The translations under genes were made by a program, and so were the position numbers. A stretch of DNA of 31,256 nucleotides, from assembly GCA_964546095.1 (NCBI GenBank), contig CAZJIR010000001.1:1-31256 (forward strand), given 5' to 3'. How positions within the stretch are numbered: the stretch's first letter is position 1; the number at the start of each line of letters is the position of its first letter. The notes under the pieces were generated by a model. That model did no database searches. It was not told the origin of the DNA and saw only the letters and a list, made by a program, of their open reading frames with translations. This document shows, in pieces, positions 1 to 21,300 of the stretch. This DNA comes from an uncultured Pirellulales bacterium (lineage in GTDB: Bacteria; Planctomycetota; Phycisphaerae; Sedimentisphaerales; Anaerobacaceae).

Positions 1-136
1 GTTTTGCTGAGGGAGTTGCCGTCCGTAACGCCTTCTGTCGTAATATCCTCGCTTGTTTGTTAGCAGAATTAGCCTGTATTAAAGCAACAATGACGGATGC
101 AATAGCAGTAATCACCGCCGTAATGATGGATTCCAT
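1..136 (-). CDS. Hypothetical membrane-anchored protein, 5' part only (runs off the window edge); not in the ORF track
   Basis: Minus-strand ATG at 136 with AAAAGGAG Shine-Dalgarno 5 nt upstream; reads MESIITAVITAIASVIVALIQANSANKQARILRQKALRTATPSAK with no stop to the window edge; hydrophobic N-terminus. Confidence 0.7.
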   Translation of the reverse strand, partial: MESIITAVITAIASVIVALIQANSANKQARILRQKALRTATPSAK

Positions 137-222: not shown

Positions 223-351
223 CTAACTATGTATATATGGTTTCCATATAAGGATATTATCAGCATGGGCTAAAACCCATCCTGCCTTCAAAATTAACGT
301 CCGCGCGATGAGATAATATTACGGTGGAAGAAGGGAGAAGGCAAGGGAAAA
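223..351 (-). other. Promoter + hairpin + attI-like element, copy 1
   Basis: TTGCCT (344-339)-N17-TAATAT (321-316); ends in GGAAACCATATATACATAGTTAGGT, containing a perfect GTTRRRY; about 98 of 124 aligned positions identical to 5256-5389. Confidence 0.6.
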
Positions 352-352
352 T

Positions 353-379
353 TTAGTTGATTAGTGAATTAGAGATTAG
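353..379. repeat. Short tandem 7-8-mer array (TTAGTTGA/TTAGTGAA/TTAGAGA/TTAG)
   Basis: Read directly from the sequence. Confidence 0.7.
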
Positions 380-633
380 GCCCCGGTGAGATAAGCATTG
401 CTATCTCACGGGGTAAACTGTGGCTTGCGGATAGTTAAACGACCCCGCGCTTACACTTGGGGCTCTGTTCGTGAAAAATTCAACGACGCAAACTCTTTGT
501 GGAATTTTCGCGCAGCTTTGTTCCGTCGGAGCCGGATAAACTCCGCAGTAAATAACCCCTTAATAAATGAAGGCACAGTCAAAAAATCCCGCAGTAAAAT
601 GGGTGGCTAAATATTTTTTAGTGTTTTATGGGA

Positions 634-1032
634 TTAATACAGGTATTCAGATGCAAGGCGTGTCAAATTGAACCAATAGAGAACGAGTACGGTCAGCGAA
701 ACAGCTATGCCGCCTGCGGCCAAGATTATGCCCCATAGTCTGCTGTGGCTTCGGAGCATTCTTATAAGGGCCACGATACCGGCCGCAAGTGAACCTGTCG
801 GCAGGATGATACAAAGGCTGTGCACGAGTCTATACATTGGTGTCTCGGCTATGAGGCAAACAGGTAGGCTTTGTATGGTCTCGATTCTGTGGATTGACAG
901 TATTACAGCGAGAATTGCCAAAAGGCTTAAAATAAATGATGCTATCGCCAAGGCGCTTGTTTGCGGCTTTTGGCGTTGTTTATTGTTATCTGTATTGTTC
1001 ACACTTTCATCAACCGCATATCTGGCTTTCAT
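634..1032 (-). CDS. Small membrane protein, DUF4190-like
   Basis: 132 aa, three hydrophobic segments; TSALAIASFILSLL and GIVALIRM...LWGIILAAGGIAVS resemble the DUF4190 pattern; own promoter upstream. Confidence 0.7.
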   Translation of the reverse strand: MKARYAVDESVNNTDNNKQRQKPQTSALAIASFILSLLAILAVILSIHRIETIQSLPVCLIAETPMYRLVHSLCIILPTGSLAAGIVALIRMLRSHSRLWGIILAAGGIAVSLTVLVLYWFNLTRLASEYLY

Positions 1033-1060
1033 TTGACTGGTATAGTAATTACTACTGTTA

Positions 1061-1089
1061 AATCTACTTGATGTTCAGGATGAAGGCAA
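1061..1089 (-). promoter_or_regulatory. sigma70-type promoter for the 634-1032 gene
   Basis: TTGCCT-N17-TAGATT on the minus strand, about 30 nt upstream of the ATG. Confidence 0.55.
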
Positions 1090-1130
1090 GAATTGAGTGA
1101 CAGTGAGATAAATATAATTGTCTCGTGGGA

Positions 1131-1238
1131 TGAAAATGAAGAATTGAGAATGAAGAATTGAGAATTTGAGATTGTCAGGACGGAAAATTTAGGCACACAA
1201 AATCTCCATGGGATGTTTCGTGAATCGTGATTCGTGAG
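1131..1238. repeat. Heptamer tandem arrays (GAATTGA/GAATGAA units at 1131-1174; TCGTGAA/TCGTGAT units at 1218-1238)
   Basis: Read directly from the sequence. Confidence 0.75.
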
Positions 1239-1326
1239 TTAATGATAACTAATATTCAATTGTAAGCGGTGTTATACCATAAAATTCGGGATTTTTCAAG
1301 AGAATTTTTGGCAGGCAAGTGGGGCA

Positions 1327-1355
1327 TTGACGAAAACAGGCTGGGCTGATACAAT
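1327..1355 (+). promoter_or_regulatory. sigma70 promoter for tRNA-His and the downstream genes
   Basis: TTGACG-N17-TACAAT with a TGn extended -10. Confidence 0.7.
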
Positions 1356-1389
1356 TGGCTCTTCGGTCAGGCTGTGCCTGGACAGTTAT

Positions 1390-1464
1390 GGTGAAAGTAG
1401 CTCAGTTGGTTAGAGCACTGGATTGTGGATCCAGGGGTCGGGGGTTCGAGTCCCCTCTTTCACC
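1390..1464 (+). tRNA. tRNA-His (GTG)
   Basis: Acceptor stem GTGAAAG/CTTTCAC with G-1 opposite C73; anticodon stem CTGGA/TCCAG with loop TTGTGGA; GGTTCGAGTCC T-arm; CCA not encoded. Confidence 0.97.
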
Positions 1465-1539
1465 CTTTTTGATAACCCGCGTTATCGTCCTTTTGTCGTG
1501 TGCCTTTCTGTATGGCTGTCTGAAAAGGAGGAAGCGAAA

Positions 1540-2874
1540 ATGAAGAAACTCACAAACGGCTCGAAACACTTTGTAATTATTGCTTCTGTAGTTGTTATCG
1601 TTTGTGCGGGGTATGCGCAGGGTGCGATGGATGTATCGAATCAGCCGCCAGCCCGCCGCGTCGCGTCGAGGCCAGAGGGATTTGTGTCGCTGTTTAACGG
1701 CAGGGACCTTACCGGCTGGAAGGGATTGGTGGGCGACCCGAAGAGTCGGGATAAGATGAGCCGGGAAGAATTAGCCAAAGCGCAGGCGAAAGCGGATGAG
1801 GACATGCGGGCGCACTGGAAGGTGGCCGATGGCGTGCTTTGCTTCGACGGCAAAGGGTTTCAAAGCCTGTGCACGGCGCAAGACTATGGCGATTTCGAGA
1901 TGTTAGTGGACTGGAAGATTGAAGAAGGCGGGGACAGCGGGATTTATCTGCGGGGCTCGCCGCAGGTGCAGATTTGGGATTCGCAGGATAGAGAAATCGG
2001 CTCGGGCGGATTGTTTAATAATAAGAAAGGGCCGGACAAGCCGTCGAAGGTTGCCGACAGGCCGGTCGGGCAGTGGAACACGTTCAGGATTGTTATGATA
2101 GGCGAGCTGGTGACGGTGTATCTTAACGATGTGCCGGTGGTCGATAATGTTGTGTTAGAGAATTACTGGGAGCGTGATAAGCCGATATATCCGACCGGCC
2201 AGATAGAGCTTCAGGCACATAACAGCCCGCTGTATTTCAGGAATATATTTATTCGTGAGATAACCAACAGGCTTACGGAGCAGGAAAAGGCCGGGGGCTT
2301 CAAACTACTGTTTAACGGTAAGGACCTGGCGGGATGGACGGGCAGTACGAAAGGTTACATGGTCGAGGATGGCAGGATTATTTTAAAGCCCGAACACGAG
2401 GGTGGTAACCTGTTCACAGCGGACGAATACGGCGATTTTATTTTTCGCTTCGAGTTCAAACTTACGCCGGGCGCTAATAACGGCCTTGCGATTCGTTCCC
2501 CTCTTTCCGGTGACCCAGCGTATATGGGGATGGAAATTCAAATCTTAGACAACACCTCGGAAAAATATGGAAATCTTAAGCCCTATCAGTTTCACGGTTC
2601 TATTTACGGCGTTGTGCCGGCCAATCGCGGTTATCTTAAACCTGTGGGGCAGTGGAATTTTGAAGAGGTTATCGCCAAAGGCAATCGTATTACGGTTAAG
2701 CTTAACGGTACGACTATCGTTGATGCGGACATAGAAAAGGCAAGCACGCCCAAGACAATTGATGGAAGAGAGCATCCGGGGCTGAAGCGGAGCAAAGGGC
2801 ATATCGGCTTTTGCGGGCATAGTGACAGTGACTATATAGAGTTTCGGAGCATAAGAATCAAGGCTCTTGATTAG
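1540..2874 (+). CDS. Secreted tandem DUF1080 protein (3-keto-disaccharide hydrolase / 3-ketoglycal hydratase family)
   Basis: Signal peptide; two domains each starting GF.xLFNG(R/K)DLxGW, with NSG-like SGIYLR/NNGLAIR and GQWN motifs. Start moved to ATG 1540 (AAGGAGG upstream) because the track start at 1423 lies inside the tRNA. Confidence 0.88.
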   Translation: MKKLTNGSKHFVIIASVVVIVCAGYAQGAMDVSNQPPARRVASRPEGFVSLFNGRDLTGWKGLVGDPKSRDKMSREELAKAQAKADEDMRAHWKVADGVLCFDGKGFQSLCTAQDYGDFEMLVDWKIEEGGDSGIYLRGSPQVQIWDSQDREIGSGGLFNNKKGPDKPSKVADRPVGQWNTFRIVMIGELVTVYLNDVPVVDNVVLENYWERDKPIYPTGQIELQAHNSPLYFRNIFIREITNRLTEQEKAGGFKLLFNGKDLAGWTGSTKGYMVEDGRIILKPEHEGGNLFTADEYGDFIFRFEFKLTPGANNGLAIRSPLSGDPAYMGMEIQILDNTSEKYGNLKPYQFHGSIYGVVPANRGYLKPVGQWNFEEVIAKGNRITVKLNGTTIVDADIEKASTPKTIDGREHPGLKRSKGHIGFCGHSDSDYIEFRSIRIKALD

Positions 2875-2908
2875 GTAACAATGACTGATAAAAAATAAAA
2901 AGGGAAAA

Positions 2909-4189
2909 ATGATGAAGTGCAGAAAAGGTAAAGTGACTCGACGACAGTTTTTGAAAGGCTCGGCGGCGGCCGCGGGGGCAGTGATAGCCTGGCCGACAAT
3001 CGTTCCTTCTTCGGTGTTCGGTGCAGGTGCGCCCAGTAATCGTATTACGATGGGCTGCATCGGTACAGGGAACCAGGGCATGGGAAATATGAAAGGATTT
3101 AATGCCAAGTCCGACTGTGAGGTGGTGGCGATATGCGAGGTCGATGCTGGCTACATGGAGAAAGCCCGCGAGGCAATCGGCCTTGGTAGAAATTCCTGCT
3201 ATGGTGACTTTCGCGAGCTGCTGGCGCGTGGTGATATCGATGCTGTAACAATTACCGCGCCCGACCATTGGCACGTGTCGATGTCGGTCGCGGCGGTTCG
3301 GGCGGGCAAGGACGTGTATTGCGAAAAGCCGCTTACGCTGACTATAGGCGGGGGACGTGTACTTGCCGATGAGGTGAAGCGGTATGGGCGGGTTTTTCAG
3401 ACCGGCTCTCAGCAGCGTTCGAGCAGCGAGTTTCGGCAGGCGTGCGAGCTGGTTCGCAACGGCCGAATCGGGGAGCTGCGTACTATAAGAGTTGGAATTC
3501 ATGGTAATAACCGTACGTGCCCGCCGACGTGGAGTCCTGAGCCGGTGCCGGAAGGGTTTGATTATGATATGTGGCTGGGGCCTGCGCCGTGGGAGCCTTA
3601 TACGACACAGCGATGTCACTACCAGTTTCGTTTCATTCTGGATTATTCCGGCGGTCAGATGACCAACTGGGGCGCTCATTTTCTCGATATCGCGCAGTGG
3701 GGTAAAGGGGCCGATGATACGGGGCCGGTTGAAATTGTCGGGCGGGGTGATTTCCCGAAGACCGGATTGTTTACAACCGCCCAGAACGAAAATATCGAGT
3801 ACACATACGCGGACGGCGTGAAATTATTCCTTAAAAGCAGTAGTGGGCATACACGTTTCGAGGGAAGCGAGGGATGGGTCGATGTGTCACGTGCTAAAAT
3901 CGATGCAGAGCCGAAGTCGCTTTTGACGGCGAAAATCAAGCCGGATGAAATGCACCTGTATAACAGCAATGACCATAAGCAGAACTTTCTGGATTGTATT
4001 AAGAGCCGGAAGGACACAATTTGTACGGCGGAGATTGGGCATCGTTCGGCAAGCGTTTGTCATCTGGGTAATATTGCGATGCTGCTGGGCCGGAAATTAA
4101 AGTGGGACCCGAAGAAAGAACGCTTTATCAACGACTCGGCGGCCAATAATATGCTTACTCGCAGCCTGCGTGCGCCGTGGAGACTTTGA
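2909..4189 (+). CDS. Tat-exported Gfo/Idh/MocA family oxidoreductase
   Basis: TRRQFLKG twin-arginine signal; IGTGNQG nucleotide-binding motif; TAPDHWH, YCEKP, QTGSQQRS and NWGAH motifs. Confidence 0.92.
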   Translation: MMKCRKGKVTRRQFLKGSAAAAGAVIAWPTIVPSSVFGAGAPSNRITMGCIGTGNQGMGNMKGFNAKSDCEVVAICEVDAGYMEKAREAIGLGRNSCYGDFRELLARGDIDAVTITAPDHWHVSMSVAAVRAGKDVYCEKPLTLTIGGGRVLADEVKRYGRVFQTGSQQRSSSEFRQACELVRNGRIGELRTIRVGIHGNNRTCPPTWSPEPVPEGFDYDMWLGPAPWEPYTTQRCHYQFRFILDYSGGQMTNWGAHFLDIAQWGKGADDTGPVEIVGRGDFPKTGLFTTAQNENIEYTYADGVKLFLKSSSGHTRFEGSEGWVDVSRAKIDAEPKSLLTAKIKPDEMHLYNSNDHKQNFLDCIKSRKDTICTAEIGHRSASVCHLGNIAMLLGRKLKWDPKKERFINDSAANNMLTRSLRAPWRL

Positions 4190-4203
4190 AAAATAAAAAG
4201 TTC

Positions 4204-4239
4204 AAATGTAAAATGCAAAATTGAGGAATCGCTGCGCGA
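4204..4239 (+). repeat. 36-bp dispersed repeat, copy 1 (AAATGTAAAATGCAAAATTGAGGAATCGCTGCGCGA)
   Basis: 35/36 identical to 6414-6449. Confidence 0.85.
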
Positions 4240-4252
4240 AAGCTTTTTAAAC

Positions 4253-4670
4253 AGATTTCTCGACAAGCTCGAAATGACATTTTCGTATATCCCTTCGACT
4301 ACGCTCCCGCCTTCGCTAAAGCTTCCACCTTCGCTTACGCTTCCGCCTTCGCTTACGCTACGGCGAGACGAGACGGCGAGATAAAACGGTGAGACAGGCA
4401 GGGCAGGCTAAGGAAGCGCATCTGGCACAGAAGCCAGATTTCTCCACTGCGTTCGCTTCCCCTTCGACTGCGCTCAGGGCTAAAGGCTATTTACGGTCCG
4501 CCTTGGGCGTGCTTAAGGCAGAAATGACGATGAGGAGAGATTGCCACATCGCGATGATGGATAGGATTTAGAATCGGTGGGGGCCGGCTTCGCTATAGCT
4601 TCCGCCGAGCCAAGCAAGCCGCCACCCTACTAAAGTTAGATGATTTTTTCCATTCGCTTCGCTCATTCAG
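4253..4670. repeat. Mosaic of REP-like palindromic repeats, including 3 x 18-bp tandem units at 4307-4360
   Basis: AGATTTCTC...GAAATGAC twice; CCCTTCGACT(A/G)CGCTC twice; CC(G/A)CCTTCGCT(A/T)A(A/C)GCT three times; GTGGGGGCCGGCTT...AAGCCGCCACCCTAC inverted pair. Confidence 0.75.
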
Positions 4671-4714
4671 TGGCTGCCATCCCTCGTAGTCTTCTGGGGG
4701 GGTAATTATGAAAC

Positions 4715-4740
4715 TTCTAACATAAAGCGAGTTGTTAGAA
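4715..4740 (-). other. Short attC-like inverted repeat (TTCTAAC-N12-GTTAGAA)
   Basis: Perfect 7-bp inverted repeat starting 2 nt after the stop codon of the 4743-5231 gene; R''/R'-like but without L boxes. Confidence 0.45.
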
Positions 4741-4742
4741 AA

Positions 4743-5231
4743 TTACGTTAAGATTTTATCTTTTTTTAATTTCCAAACATATACGCATACTGCAATGCTA
4801 ATCGCATAACCGATGCATGCCCCAATTAGTGCCCCGATTATACTAGCCACCTGGATTATTAAATTCCCTTCGATTGGTCCGCCCACTCCCATGGCCTGAA
4901 GCCAACCTTTTGTTGAAATACGCCAGATTGTGTATAATGTACCTATTGTTAGTCCGCCAGCGAATAAATATAAAGCTGTTTTTCGTAACAGGAATAGTGA
5001 TATTGCTCCGGCTAAATTAATTCCCATTAAAAGAACAGTATAACCATAGTCAAAAGTTGTAAGATTATTGAAATATGCTTCTTGTCCTGCAGTTAGAGGA
5101 AAGATGTTACGGAAAATAAAAAAAAGGCCAAATGAAAGGATAGTTAAGGGAAATGAAATTAAATAAAATATTGATATAACCCAAACTAAAACAGGCCGGT
5201 TTTTCTTCGCGCTTAAATTGTTCGTCTCCAT
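4743..5231 (-). CDS. Hypothetical integral membrane protein, AT-rich and cassette-like
   Basis: 162 aa, about 4 hydrophobic helices; AAGGAAG upstream of the ATG; visibly lower GC than neighbouring genes. Confidence 0.85.
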   Translation of the reverse strand: METNNLSAKKNRPVLVWVISIFYLISFPLTILSFGLFFIFRNIFPLTAGQEAYFNNLTTFDYGYTVLLMGINLAGAISLFLLRKTALYLFAGGLTIGTLYTIWRISTKGWLQAMGVGGPIEGNLIIQVASIIGALIGACIGYAISIAVCVYVWKLKKDKILT

Positions 5232-5253
5232 TGATCTTCCTTTATTTTTTCAC

Positions 5254-5389
5254 CTCTAACTATGTTTATATGGTTTCCGGATAAAACTATTGTCAACATG
5301 AGCGGCAGAGTTGCCCATACTACCTTAAAAATAAACGTCCGCACGACAATGAAATATTACGGTGTAAAAGTGGGAAATGCAAGGGAAAA
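5254..5389 (-). other. Promoter + hairpin + attI-like element, copy 2
   Basis: TTGCAT (5382-5377)-N17-TAATAT (5359-5354); ends in GGAAACCATATAAACATAGTTAGAG; homologous to 223-351. Confidence 0.6.
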
Positions 5390-6399: not shown

Positions 6400-6413
6400 C
6401 GAAATAAAAATAA

Positions 6414-6487
6414 AAATGTAAAATGCAAAATTGTGGAATCGCTGCGCGATTTTATTTCGTATCTCGTAATTCGTGAAGCGTATCTCG
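6414..6487 (+). repeat. 36-bp dispersed repeat, copy 2 (6414-6449), followed by a TCGT-heptamer array
   Basis: 35/36 identical to 4204-4239, then TCGTATC TCGTAAT TCGTGAA GCGTATC TCG. Confidence 0.8.
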
Positions 6488-17742: not shown

Positions 17743-20700
17743 TTATCTGATTGGCCGTGATAAACTCTCCCGAAGTCTCATTTTAAAATCTCTTTCAATC
17801 GGTCGTCCGGTTGGAGTCATTCTGCCGCCAGGAGCTATTCTGCTGCCCGGAACCATTCCACCTGGAGCCATTTCCATTTCGCCCCGAATCATCGGAGCCT
17901 GAGCTGTGGATGGTTGAGCGAATTCGACGGGTCGGCCTATTATATGTGCCGTAATGAAGACAGCAACTTCCCGGTCAGACTTGGTGTCGTTTTTATTACG
18001 GAATAGCGAGCCTATTATTGGAATACTACTAAAGCCAGGAACCCGTTGTTCGGATAAACGTGTTCGGTTCTCCGTCAGGCCAGCCACAGCAACCGTCCCG
18101 CCGTTTTTAATACTAACGGTGTTAGTAGCCGTTCGCCGTGTAACCACCGGAAGGTCGTTTCCTCTGCCGCGCGGTATGCTGTCACTGACTTCGATAGCCA
18201 AGTCCAGAGTAATATCATTATTGTCCCCTATATGGGGCGTGATACTCAGCTTGGTACCGGACTCAATTTTTTCCATTTCAGTTCGAGTATAGTAGATGGC
18301 ACCTATATCCGGTGAAGTCAGCATATAGTACTCTTCGGTCAAGACATTGATTTCGGCTCTCTTGCCGTCCTGGGCCATGACCTGGGGCTTTGCCAGTATT
18401 GTCGCCTCGTCATTCTCAGAGAGCAAGTTCAGCGCCATATTCAGCGAATCGGTGAATGTTGCATCAGGCGTATATCCGATTGTGATAGCCCCTGCTATCT
18501 TGCCACCTAAGTCGAGCAAATCCCCACCGCGTCCTTTCAGATCGTTACTAAAGCCTCCGGCACTGATAGTAGGCATACCCCACTCGACACCCATATTCAG
18601 CAGGTCGCCGCTTTCCATTACCACACTGCGCGCATCAAGCAAAACATGAGACGGCAGGTGGTCGATTTCCTTTAAGTCCGCTACGATACGCTCCATTAAA
18701 GCCGGCGGGGCAGTTATAACCACCGTGTAAGTATCGGCTCCAGGCCGTCCAACTTCGGCCTGAACGTAATCCGTGAAGGCAGAAGACAAAAGTCCCACCG
18801 CCGCTCTTGCACTAATGTAGCTCATTTTTACCCGGCGCGTTTCGCTCACTTTCGTGAACATTGTGCTTTTGACATCTCCGGAGCAAACCAGGTAATAATA
18901 GGGCGTCTCCTTCACAATATACGGAGTGCCGGCCAAGACAATATCAAGCGCTGTGTCTAACGGCATATCTTTAAGCTGACAGGTTACAGACCCGACGACC
19001 GTTTCGTCTGGAATAATGGTAATGTCCGCTGTCGTAGCGATGGCCTGGAGTGCATCAATTATATCCTCATCAACAAAGATATTACTAATAAGCGGTACTT
19101 CCGCAACGATTTCGCCTGATTCTACTACAGCGGCTGACTTCGGCTTACTCAAAAGTTCTTCCAGTCTTTTCAGTAGTTTATCCGTTTCAGACAATTCTTC
19201 TTCCGGCTCCGTGGTAGTTGGCCCAGTGGGAAATTCCCCGGGGAACGTAGAGTCTTCAACCGGCGGCAAAGTATCTATCGTAGGTTCAGCAGCCGGAGGT
19301 GTTGGCGATGGCCTATGCATAGAGCGATAATCCTCTTCCGTCATATCTTCCATCATATTTTGAGTAACGTTAGTATATGACTTATCCGGAAACTGAAAAC
19401 CTTCCATTGCCAGTGAAATCTCACCGCTCCAGTTGTAAGGCACTTCAACACTGAATTTACCCGAAGCGTCGGTGACGGTGGTACCTCCACCATTATTTGC
19501 GCGGACCTGTACACCTTTGATGCCGGTTCCACCAACCCGCACAACATCGGTTATAGTAAACATCTGTATTTTTGCAACAAAGTTCTGGTTTACAAGGTCT
19601 TTGGTAACAGGCGCAGCTTGTCGTTTATTAGTTGGCCTATAGTTATGGCCCACTTTTGTAGGTGTTATCGTACCGCGCCAACCGTAATCCACGGTCAGTT
19701 CATACCTGCCGTTAGTGTCGGTGTCGCTGGAACCTCCACCTGCATCTGCCACGATGAATACACCCTCGACAGGCTCGCCCTTTTCAGAACGTATAGTACC
19801 TGAAATGGTACGTTTTTCCAAAGCCGCAAAATAGTCCTGACTAACCTCAGGGCCTAAAAGCTCAGAGTACGTAATCTCAGGGGGGTTGAAGGTGTAACCG
19901 GCCTTTATCGGTTTCACTGTGCCGCTCCAGCCGTAAGGAATCTCTGCGGTATAAATACCATCGGCATTACTTATAACAGGTCTGCCCGGCAGGCCTCTCA
20001 ACGCTACACTAGCCATTCCAACAGAACCGCTAATTGTAAATGTAACCTGTTTTGCAGTGAATCTTTGATTCTTCTGGTCGGTAGTAATATTTGTGTACGG
20101 TTTAGAAGACGGTGTAAATTCATAACCGTCAATCATAGGCATGACTGTGCCAGTCCAGCCCCAGGGAACATTGACACTGAACATGCCGCCTGCACTGGTA
20201 ACCGGATTATCCGGCAAGCCATCTATTGTTACGCCTTCCATACCGACAGAGCCGGCAATGGTCAATATAATCGGTGTCGAAGTGTAATCCTGCTCGGTCT
20301 TGTCGCTTATCACTTTAGTGTAATTTATTGTAGCGGGGTCTTCGAATTTGTAACCCGGCTTTTCCGGTTTAACGGTTCCGCTCCAGCCCCAAGGGACATT
20401 AGCACTGTAATAGCCGTCCATATCGGTAAAAACAACATCTTCCGGAAAACCCTTCATTTCCACGTTGTCCAACCCAGCCGAGCCTGATATCATGAAAGTA
20501 ATTTCATTAGCAAAGTAATCCTGACTAGCATAAGCATTCATGACTTCAGAATATGGTGTTTCGGCTGGCTCAAAAGTGTAACCCTCTTTCACCGGCTTAA
20601 CCGTGCCGCTCCAGTTGTATTTAACAGCGGCACTGTAATTGCCATTCCTGTCTGTGGTCGGATTGTTCGGCAGGCCGTTCATTACCACCCCTTCTACGCC

Positions 20701-21300
20701 AACAGAACCGGATATTTCATAAGTAATTACGGCACCACTATAGTTCTGATTCGCCGTATCCCTTGTAACGGAAGTGTATGATATAGTGTTTGGTGTGAAC
20801 ATGTAACCCTCCTTTGACGGTATAACCGACCCAGCCCAATCGTAAGGTACATCGGCTTTGTAAGTACCGTTGCTACCTGTAATCGGGGCATCCGGCAGGC
20901 CTTCCATCATCACGCCTTCCATCGGCGCACCATCCATCCGTACCACACCTGAAACAGTAAATTGTCTTATCGTAGCAACGTAATCCTGATTAAGCTGGTT
21001 GCTTGTAACTTTTGGGTAATCTTTGTTAGGCGGATCGAAGGTATAACCCGGCATTTCAGGTGTAACTTTACCTCTCCAACCATAATCAACGGTAACGCTA
21101 TAAAAACCGCTCCCATCAGTAACAGGATTTTCCGGCAGACCTTTCATCGTCACGCCACCCAGTCCTGTAGAACCGGATATGGTGAAAGTTACTTTTGTCC
21201 CTTCGATTGCCTGCACGCTGACATTCATCGCGCATAACAAAACGACGCAGAGGACAATGATGCCGTCCGATAAAATTCTGCCGATATTTTTACTTGCCAT
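17743..21300 (-). CDS. Secretin (PilQ/GspD superfamily) with eight N-terminal Ig/carboxypeptidase-regulatory-like repeats
   Basis: C-terminal VLLDARSVV...MGVEWG, ILAKPQVMAQDGKRAEI, SGTKLSITPHI, VPGFSSIPIIGSLFR and EVAVFITAHII motifs; STN/N0 and N3-like domains; eight ~75-84-aa repeats. Confidence 0.9.
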   Translation of the reverse strand: MASKNIGRILSDGIIVLCVVLLCAMNVSVQAIEGTKVTFTISGSTGLGGVTMKGLPENPVTDGSGFYSVTVDYGWRGKVTPEMPGYTFDPPNKDYPKVTSNQLNQDYVATIRQFTVSGVVRMDGAPMEGVMMEGLPDAPITGSNGTYKADVPYDWAGSVIPSKEGYMFTPNTISYTSVTRDTANQNYSGAVITYEISGSVGVEGVVMNGLPNNPTTDRNGNYSAAVKYNWSGTVKPVKEGYTFEPAETPYSEVMNAYASQDYFANEITFMISGSAGLDNVEMKGFPEDVVFTDMDGYYSANVPWGWSGTVKPEKPGYKFEDPATINYTKVISDKTEQDYTSTPIILTIAGSVGMEGVTIDGLPDNPVTSAGGMFSVNVPWGWTGTVMPMIDGYEFTPSSKPYTNITTDQKNQRFTAKQVTFTISGSVGMASVALRGLPGRPVISNADGIYTAEIPYGWSGTVKPIKAGYTFNPPEITYSELLGPEVSQDYFAALEKRTISGTIRSEKGEPVEGVFIVADAGGGSSDTDTNGRYELTVDYGWRGTITPTKVGHNYRPTNKRQAAPVTKDLVNQNFVAKIQMFTITDVVRVGGTGIKGVQVRANNGGGTTVTDASGKFSVEVPYNWSGEISLAMEGFQFPDKSYTNVTQNMMEDMTEEDYRSMHRPSPTPPAAEPTIDTLPPVEDSTFPGEFPTGPTTTEPEEELSETDKLLKRLEELLSKPKSAAVVESGEIVAEVPLISNIFVDEDIIDALQAIATTADITIIPDETVVGSVTCQLKDMPLDTALDIVLAGTPYIVKETPYYYLVCSGDVKSTMFTKVSETRRVKMSYISARAAVGLLSSAFTDYVQAEVGRPGADTYTVVITAPPALMERIVADLKEIDHLPSHVLLDARSVVMESGDLLNMGVEWGMPTISAGGFSNDLKGRGGDLLDLGGKIAGAITIGYTPDATFTDSLNMALNLLSENDEATILAKPQVMAQDGKRAEINVLTEEYYMLTSPDIGAIYYTRTEMEKIESGTKLSITPHIGDNNDITLDLAIEVSDSIPRGRGNDLPVVTRRTATNTVSIKNGGTVAVAGLTENRTRLSEQRVPGFSSIPIIGSLFRNKNDTKSDREVAVFITAHIIGRPVEFAQPSTAQAPMIRGEMEMAPGGMVPGSRIAPGGRMTPTGRPIERDFKMRLRESLSRPIR

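Follow-up and report, generated by a model that had tools for sequence, protein, structure and literature searches.

What is one and the same short module doing twice, 5 kb apart, in front of genes that have nothing in common? The question is raised by a stretch of 31,256 nucleotides (nt) of contig CAZJIR010000001.1 from an uncultured planctomycete of the Sedimentisphaerales, hereafter the window, in which two copies of a module of about 130 nt lie on the minus strand at 223-351 and 5256-5389. Each copy consists of promoter-like hexamers, a leader with a putative hairpin and a short core ending in GTT, followed by an open reading frame (ORF). We consider it probable that each module is a promoter-equipped attI, the docking site of integron cassettes, derived from a same-orientation integron platform (intI, attI and cassettes) whose integrase gene has been lost.

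The two copies share 106 identities over 129 and 134 nt (about 80% in a global alignment), and the length difference between them sits in the hairpin loop; a repeat search likewise paired 276-351 with 5314-5389 (78% identity) and 208-270 with 5241-5303 (75%). On the minus strand both read TTGC(C/A)T, 17 nt, TAATAT, CG(C/T)GCGGACGTT, the hairpin and GGAAACCATATA(T/A)ACATAGTTAG. The putative -35 hexamers (TTGCCT at 339-344 in copy 1, TTGCAT at 5377-5382 in copy 2) are conserved between the copies, and the putative -10 hexamer TAATAT lies at 316-321, behind a 17-nt spacer, and at 5354-5359, respectively. The leader hairpin of copy 1 (CAGGATGGG / CCCATGCTG) occupies 261-284 and that of copy 2 occupies 5294-5322, where the stem is retained via G-U-type changes; with two sequences only, the stem is putative. 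The core, GGAAACCATATA(T/A)ACATAGTT in both copies, is located at 245-225 and 5278-5258. Its 23-mer form occurs twice in the window when up to 3 mismatches are allowed, compared to 0 occurrences in 100 shuffles, and no further copy was found in the window. In copy 1, the attI block (225-257), delineated from the conservation profile and the geometry of complete integrons, comprises a degenerate direct-repeat (DR) box at 257-246, 18 nt and GTT, and the crossover is predicted between G227 and T226. In copy 2, the block (5258-5290), delineated from the conservation profile, consists of the DR-like AGTTTTATCC, then GGAAACCATATAAACATA, then GTT, with the predicted crossover between G5260 and T5259. 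Similarity between the copies stops after GTTAG, and the ORFs beyond are unrelated. The coordinates of the duplication, the abrupt end of homology after GTTAG and the lack of an integrase nearby, all of which had been noticed in the original prediction, were thereby confirmed, the last by the finding that the 31-kb window encodes no recombinase.

The core is not peculiar to the window. The exact 23-mer was found in 58 loci; these belong to 39 assemblies, which carry the labels Sedimentisphaerales, Phycisphaerae or Planctomycetota. The exact 21-mer occurs in at least 119 metagenome contigs, and no core was found in viral contigs. Allowing up to 3 mismatches, we collected 231 unique core copies in 178 loci (0.98 Mb). 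A single metagenome-assembled genome (MAG) carries up to 15 copies on separate large contigs, and in NJBM01 the copies are spread over four large contigs. Positions -12 to +20 are conserved at about 96% across these copies, and directly after GTT the value falls to 46%. The most conserved stretch, -12 to +20, reads GG..T.TTATAC GGAAACCATATATACATAGTT, and the conserved block as a whole GG(G/A)(G/T)T.TTATAC GGAAACCATATATACATA G/TT, where the last slash marks the crossover. Downstream of each core copy, after 10-40 nt, there is a Shine-Dalgarno sequence and an ORF (median 189 amino acids, aa), and upstream there are several unrelated classes of modules, each with its own promoter-like hexamers. 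Many loci are same-strand arrays of cores, such as L028 with 8 copies in 8 kb and L037 with 5 copies in 5.4 kb. Two contigs with the core and cassettes are binned outside the planctomycetes, one (L030, JAEOTM010000022.1) as a Hodarchaeota archaeon and the other (L041, JAIVYN010000008.1) as Aegiribacteria; this binning probably reflects contamination by planctomycete DNA, with horizontal transfer as the alternative.

The bases that follow the core indicate what the downstream genes are. In an integron cassette, the first bases (TTRRRY) pair with the R'' box (RYYYAAC) of the cassette's own attC. Because of this pairing, we searched for the reverse complement of the 4 nt after the core GTT, extended by AAC, near the stop codon of the downstream ORF. 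The sequence was present in 26 of 71 copies, where permutations gave a mean of 3.4 and a maximum of 9. In a larger set of 185 copies, 69 had the exact 4-nt complement, whereas 1000 permutations averaged 6.05 and reached at most 16. The matches nearly always lie between -28 and +29 nt from the stop, and a TAA stop is often contained within the CTAAC of the box. Furthermore, these R'' boxes start bulged hairpins of 57-87 nt that terminate in GTT, and in an alignment of 30 such hairpins, 12 of the 13 pairs that were predicted showed compensatory double changes. The aligned attC hairpins served to build a covariance model (R1; sites counted at E<0.01), which detected 49 attC sites in the loci L001-L058 (380 kb), every one on the strand of the core, compared to 4 in control loci around dapB from the same taxa (801 kb), and one of these 4 lies downstream of the single core in the control set. 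The complementarity of the bases after GTT to R'' therefore places the cassette boundary at the G/TT of the core, and together with the covarying attC sites it identifies the genes behind the core as integron cassettes whose 5' boundary is the core G/TT.

Remnants of an integron integrase gene lie on the core's opposite side. In L047, an ORF in the same orientation ends 25 nt before the core, and its best match is TIGR02249 (integron integrase), positions 261-315 of 315, with E 3.7e-27. Shorter intI remnants, ending in DSL and a stop codon, precede the core in the same orientation in L262, L256, L299 and L229. The distance from the end of the remnant to the functional core is 25-26 nt in L047 and L262; in L256, L299 and L229 the remnant ends 26 nt before an upstream partial core and about 150 nt from the functional one. 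The last codons of intI plus 26 nt make up the common leader ...CTCCCTTTGAACGA(C/T)GAGAGGCTTGGGATGTTATAC. Complete integrons of other lineages share the layout. In L340 and L341, a full-length intI reads toward the cassettes and is followed by GGGGTG(T/C)TA..C boxes, exactly 18 nt and GTT; the 4 nt behind this GTT predict an R'' that occurs once per locus, where it starts a significant attC (E 4e-10 and 1e-8). The Sedimentisphaerales core is built in the same way: GGGRTGTTATRC, 18 nt, G/TT. An attI is a double-stranded site, conserved in sequence, that contains a simple site and repeat boxes to which IntI binds, and at its G/TT cassettes are joined with their starts pairing with their own R''; the core block has these parts, and the core copies with an R'' match have cassettes so joined. 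In the two complete integrons the crossover sites were located (L340 1261-1440, L341 1420-1520) by the same R''-complement test, a simple computational procedure that looks like a general way to find attI sites of unknown position.

An atypical integron with this orientation, in which intI is transcribed toward attI and the cassettes, has been described in Treponema (PMC3607928). The Treponema-type attI resembles the core in the G/TT crossover, in the direct-repeat boxes upstream of the simple site and in the direction of intI. Judging from the geometry and the remnants, the probable ancestor of the modules is a platform of the Treponema type, with intI reading toward attI. There are two differences: in the core loci intI is cut down to its last 24-63 codons or absent, and there are many sites per genome, with different promoter modules joined upstream, whereas each integron has only one attI (PMC3607928).

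We propose that the conserved block would comprise an IntI-binding DR box, the crossover triplet and, between the two, 18 nt that include the simple site's left half. When an integron integrase engages a circular cassette through its folded attC, the cassette would be joined at G/TT, and the captured ORF would land 10-40 nt behind the site (90 nt in copy 1) and be transcribed from the upstream promoter. In the window, this would have produced two units 5 kb apart among housekeeping genes, each before a small, low-GC gene for a membrane protein. Cassettes, if they are loaded at present, would be recombined by an integrase supplied in trans; an intact intI is missing from the vicinity of every copy, and the window contains no recombinase. 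Both window genes would likewise have arrived as cassettes. The module promoter, judged from its hexamers, would be a weak sigma-70-like one.

Several observations weigh against this interpretation. The hexamers match the promoter consensus at only 8 of 12 (copy 1) and 7 of 12 (copy 2) positions, and a consensus promoter scan flagged neither pair, which fell below its threshold. The DR boxes of the window copies (ATCCTTATAT, AGTTTTATCC) lack the GG that is otherwise 88% conserved, and the leader class of the window was absent from other genomes in a local BLAST and two scans of genome collections. In L001-L058, no attC could be detected for about half of the cores. None of the 178 core loci contains an intact intI, and neither locus nor protein searches linked an intact cognate intI to any core-bearing genome: the locus search with the remnant as query gave matches in other phyla, the protein search with the same query only short fragments among the matches listed, and searches with full-length IntI queries retrieved full-length integrases of which none was tied to a core-bearing genome. 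The contexts of three of the proteins (P0200, P0203 and P0330) are related integrons without this core. In addition, chimeric joins at repeats within MAG contigs could account for some of the observed combinations of modules and cassettes. As for the window itself, a complete integron consists of a functional intI, attI and at least one attC, and the window has neither a tyrosine recombinase nor a significant attC: the best hit of R1, at 23-65, has E 0.53.

A weaker candidate is found directly after the stop of the 162-aa ORF behind copy 2, where TTCTAAC-N12-GTTAGAA (4715-4740, minus strand; R1 10.8 bits, E 1.4, not significant) might be a vestigial attC reduced to the R'' and R' boxes. It forms an 8-bp stem (z -5.2), and 3 of 4 bases are complementary to the cassette start TTAGAG; these 26 nt may represent a collapsed attC.

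Because the window lacks a significant attC and its DR boxes are degenerate, the window units may be inactive relics. Taken to its end, this would mean that they are inert fossil fragments of a platform, of the same integron origin, kept as the promoter and 5' untranslated region of genes that have become fixed. The attC stub just described, the degenerate DR boxes, the 31 kb without a recombinase and the cores elsewhere that likewise lack an attC all agree with this possibility. We nevertheless regard it as rather unlikely, given that the 21-nt core is intact (0 and 1 differences from the consensus in the two copies) despite a divergence of about 20% in the remaining module. Moreover, in loci with tandem pairs of cores, the upstream copy is truncated (GGAAACCATATAAGAC...) and accumulates changes, and the gene-proximal copy is intact; this decay of upstream partial cores suggests that the core next to the gene is being maintained. 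Possibly the native attI region has the tandem form, and the short forms may have arisen from it via deletion between repeats.

The arrays show how promoter-equipped attI modules and cassettes are arranged relative to each other. Denoting a core I and an attC C, the loci follow the patterns I-C, I-C-I-C and I-C-C(-C). In L028, one 192-aa cassette (99% identity) is found behind a class-2 and a class-1 module, with the homology beginning at the core, and two contigs of one MAG (L027, L034) have the same cassette, each time behind a different module. Within arrays, class-1 and class-2 modules start exactly at an attC G/TT (TTAGGGAACGAATATG..., TTACGCACGG...) and end at the core G/TT; with two such bounds, they are formally cassette-like units carrying an attI. 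The same bounds could be taken to mean that the module is an ORF-less promoter cassette, in which the core would not be an attI but the R'/L' end of an attC that is unusual in its conserved sequence. This is very improbable, because an attC, an imperfect palindrome that has R''/R' and L''/L' boxes and extrahelical bases, folds end to end and is conserved in structure, whereas the class-1 module does not fold (z -0.5 and -0.1, compared to -2 to -5 for attC sites), the module has no R'' complementary to its own start, and the core is conserved in sequence, not in structure, lies after remnants of intI and has the geometry of attI in complete integrons. A class-1 module as one giant attC was rejected for want of a fold.

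With these results, an attI-like site behind a promoter, with unrelated genes attached at G/TT, as put forward in the original prediction, is supported by the R''/R' complementarity, the enrichment of attC on the same strand, the 3' remnants of intI, the geometry of complete integrons and the absence of a recombinase from the window. The description of the modules as stand-alone landing pads holds in part: some are indeed alone in the chromosome, and in relatives the sites also alternate with cassettes in arrays. The 10/15 match to attI1 that had been cited is weak evidence by itself.

A purely regulatory role of the core is hardly credible. An operator, an RNA-protein site, a riboswitch-like leader or a special promoter shared by a regulon, without any recombination, would account for the position of the core, which is always 5' of the gene, 10-90 nt before the start codon and in gene orientation, and for the hairpin in the leader. 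However, a regulatory site cannot explain why the bases after the core co-vary with an attC at the far end of the gene, nor does it account for intI remnants upstream, and no Rfam family gave a credible match to it even at E of 10 (in the window and 18 loci, only tRNAs reached the gathering score). A riboswitch or hammerhead reading of the class-2 leader (CUGAAUGAUGAG...GAAAC) was abandoned when, by eye, the core residues and stems did not fit. Similarly, a leader peptide ending in the core was rejected: conservation is the same at all three codon positions and does not extend to the stop codon. Partial resemblances to dif/Xer-like and Hin-type sites, to T7-like, extracytoplasmic-function or sigma-54 promoters and to the right end of IS200/605 were superseded by the attC complementarity. 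We give next to no credence to a transposase-driven miniature element with an outward promoter (a miniature inverted-repeat transposable element, a Correia-like element or an IS200/605-type end), which would fit the multiple copies with a sharp end, the short hairpin TATACGG-AAA-CCATATA about 10 nt from that end and the nested and tandem partial copies, but for which no terminal inverted repeat or target duplication was seen and the repeat search revealed no inverted core copy, which has no associated transposase, and whose junction follows the R''/R' logic of integrons.

Much of this machinery is already known, namely attI, attC, cassettes and the clusters of attC sites or single attC sites lacking an integron integrase (CALIN and SALIN) (PMC4889954; bioRxiv 10.1101/2022.09.11.507474). 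CALIN, SALIN and attG sites involve cassettes or attC sites away from the integron integrase that may be serviced in trans (PMC4889954; bioRxiv 10.1101/2022.09.11.507474). Related loci such as L028, L037 and L030 have the two or more attC without a neighbouring integrase that define a CALIN; the window does not. The attG site differs from the core in having a GWT consensus only and a resident promoter by chance proximity, whereas here the block that recurs before individual cassettes is conserved over about 33 bp and brings its own putative promoter. In clinical integrons, Delta-attI-type cassettes carry attI-derived sites inside arrays that are recombined by IntI1 (PMC12901181), and by analogy these appear to be the nearest described counterpart of the module as a cassette-like attI unit. 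They are rare, with a truncated attI1 or attI2 replacing attC at the 3' end of a resistance cassette, unlike the full, promoter-bearing cores described here, which commonly precede cassettes and are also found singly in the chromosome. The class 1 integron, with Pc and attI1, offers another likeness, in that a promoter upstream of the docking site expresses captured promoterless genes, as the putative promoter would here, and the A-variant of the core, ATAAAC-ATA-GTT, parallels AAAAC-AAA-GTT of attI1. There is no homology beyond such short boxes, however, and in class 1 integrons Pc lies within intI1, divergent from the cassettes, and the site is present in a single copy. None of the descriptions that we found has a sequence-defined attI with tens of copies in one genome, a promoter module fused to each of them, copies interleaved with single cassettes as well as alone among core genes, and an integrase gene that is eroded at every copy. 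Among the papers that we searched, none deals with integrons in Phycisphaerae.

In integron theory, there is one attI and one Pc per platform, and expression falls with distance from Pc, leaving most cassettes silent. A tentative extension of our results, which we regard as possible rather than expected, is that Sedimentisphaerales possess a distributed integron: tens of promoter-equipped attI sites per genome, interleaved with cassettes or alone, would all be served by an integrase whose gene lies at another place in the genome or in the community, every cassette, and not just the first few of an array, would be expressed from its own promoter, and the modules would move as cassette-like units with a crossover point at either end. 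If the unit of attI and promoter has multiplied and scattered in this manner, the view of cassette expression, cassette order and the cost of arrays would change, and there would be a concrete route from a captured cassette to a resident chromosomal gene. The core would also supply a sequence-defined attI family for an uncultured marine-sediment phylum that could extend tools of the IntegronFinder type.

The surroundings of the two units are those of an ordinary chromosome: the 31-kb window encodes GlmS, HisF, ClpB, a secretin, RuvABC, GuaA, CysS and two tRNAs. Behind copy 1, the presumed cassette gene (1-136, minus strand, GC content 0.37) runs off the window and starts with an N-terminal transmembrane helix, its Shine-Dalgarno sequence AAGGAG lying at 147-142. 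The presumed cassette gene behind copy 2 is the 162-aa membrane-like ORF (4743-5231, minus strand), which belongs to no Pfam family. The GC content of the two genes is 0.32-0.41, compared to 0.47-0.59 in neighbouring genes. The copy-2 unit is missing upstream of dapB in relatives, in which other sequence is found between the oxidoreductase and dapB genes, and the core is present in only 1 of 80 dapB loci.

Several other repeats were noticed in and around the modules. A hairpin (ccccggtgagataagcattgctatctcacgggg) at 373-405, just upstream of copy 1, is about 86% identical in three other loci (L279, L257 and L222). A non-coding element of about 200-330 nt (GGAATTAAAGGGGTACGGTACATTTTTCGATGAGTTGTGCTTGATAATGATAGG...CTGAATTACTGCGGAGCTTTGGGACGCAGA...), conserved between genomes, lies approximately 330 to 110 nt upstream of class-1 cores in L021, L022, L026, L031, L034, L041 and L058 and has no Rfam match. 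A hairpin element resembling repetitive extragenic palindromes (GGTGGGGGCCGG...GCCGCCACCCTAC) occurs at 4576-4630 on the plus strand, and a similar element (AATGGTGGGGCAAGCCCCACCCTAC) was found in or beside the attI modules of L006, L007, L009, L026, L027 and L057. Downstream of the 162-aa ORF, an 18-nt unit (CCTTCGCTTACGCTTCCG) is present in three to four tandem, non-coding copies at 4292-4359. The oxidoreductase and dapB genes are each followed, just past the stop codon, by a copy of a 44-nt repeat (4196-4239 and 6406-6449, 91% identical), which may be a terminator common to both or else a small dispersed repeat. Finally, on the minus strand at 19424-21087, within the ORF 17743-21300 for a 1185-aa secretin-domain protein (Pfam), there are six to seven repeats with a period of 225-249 nt.

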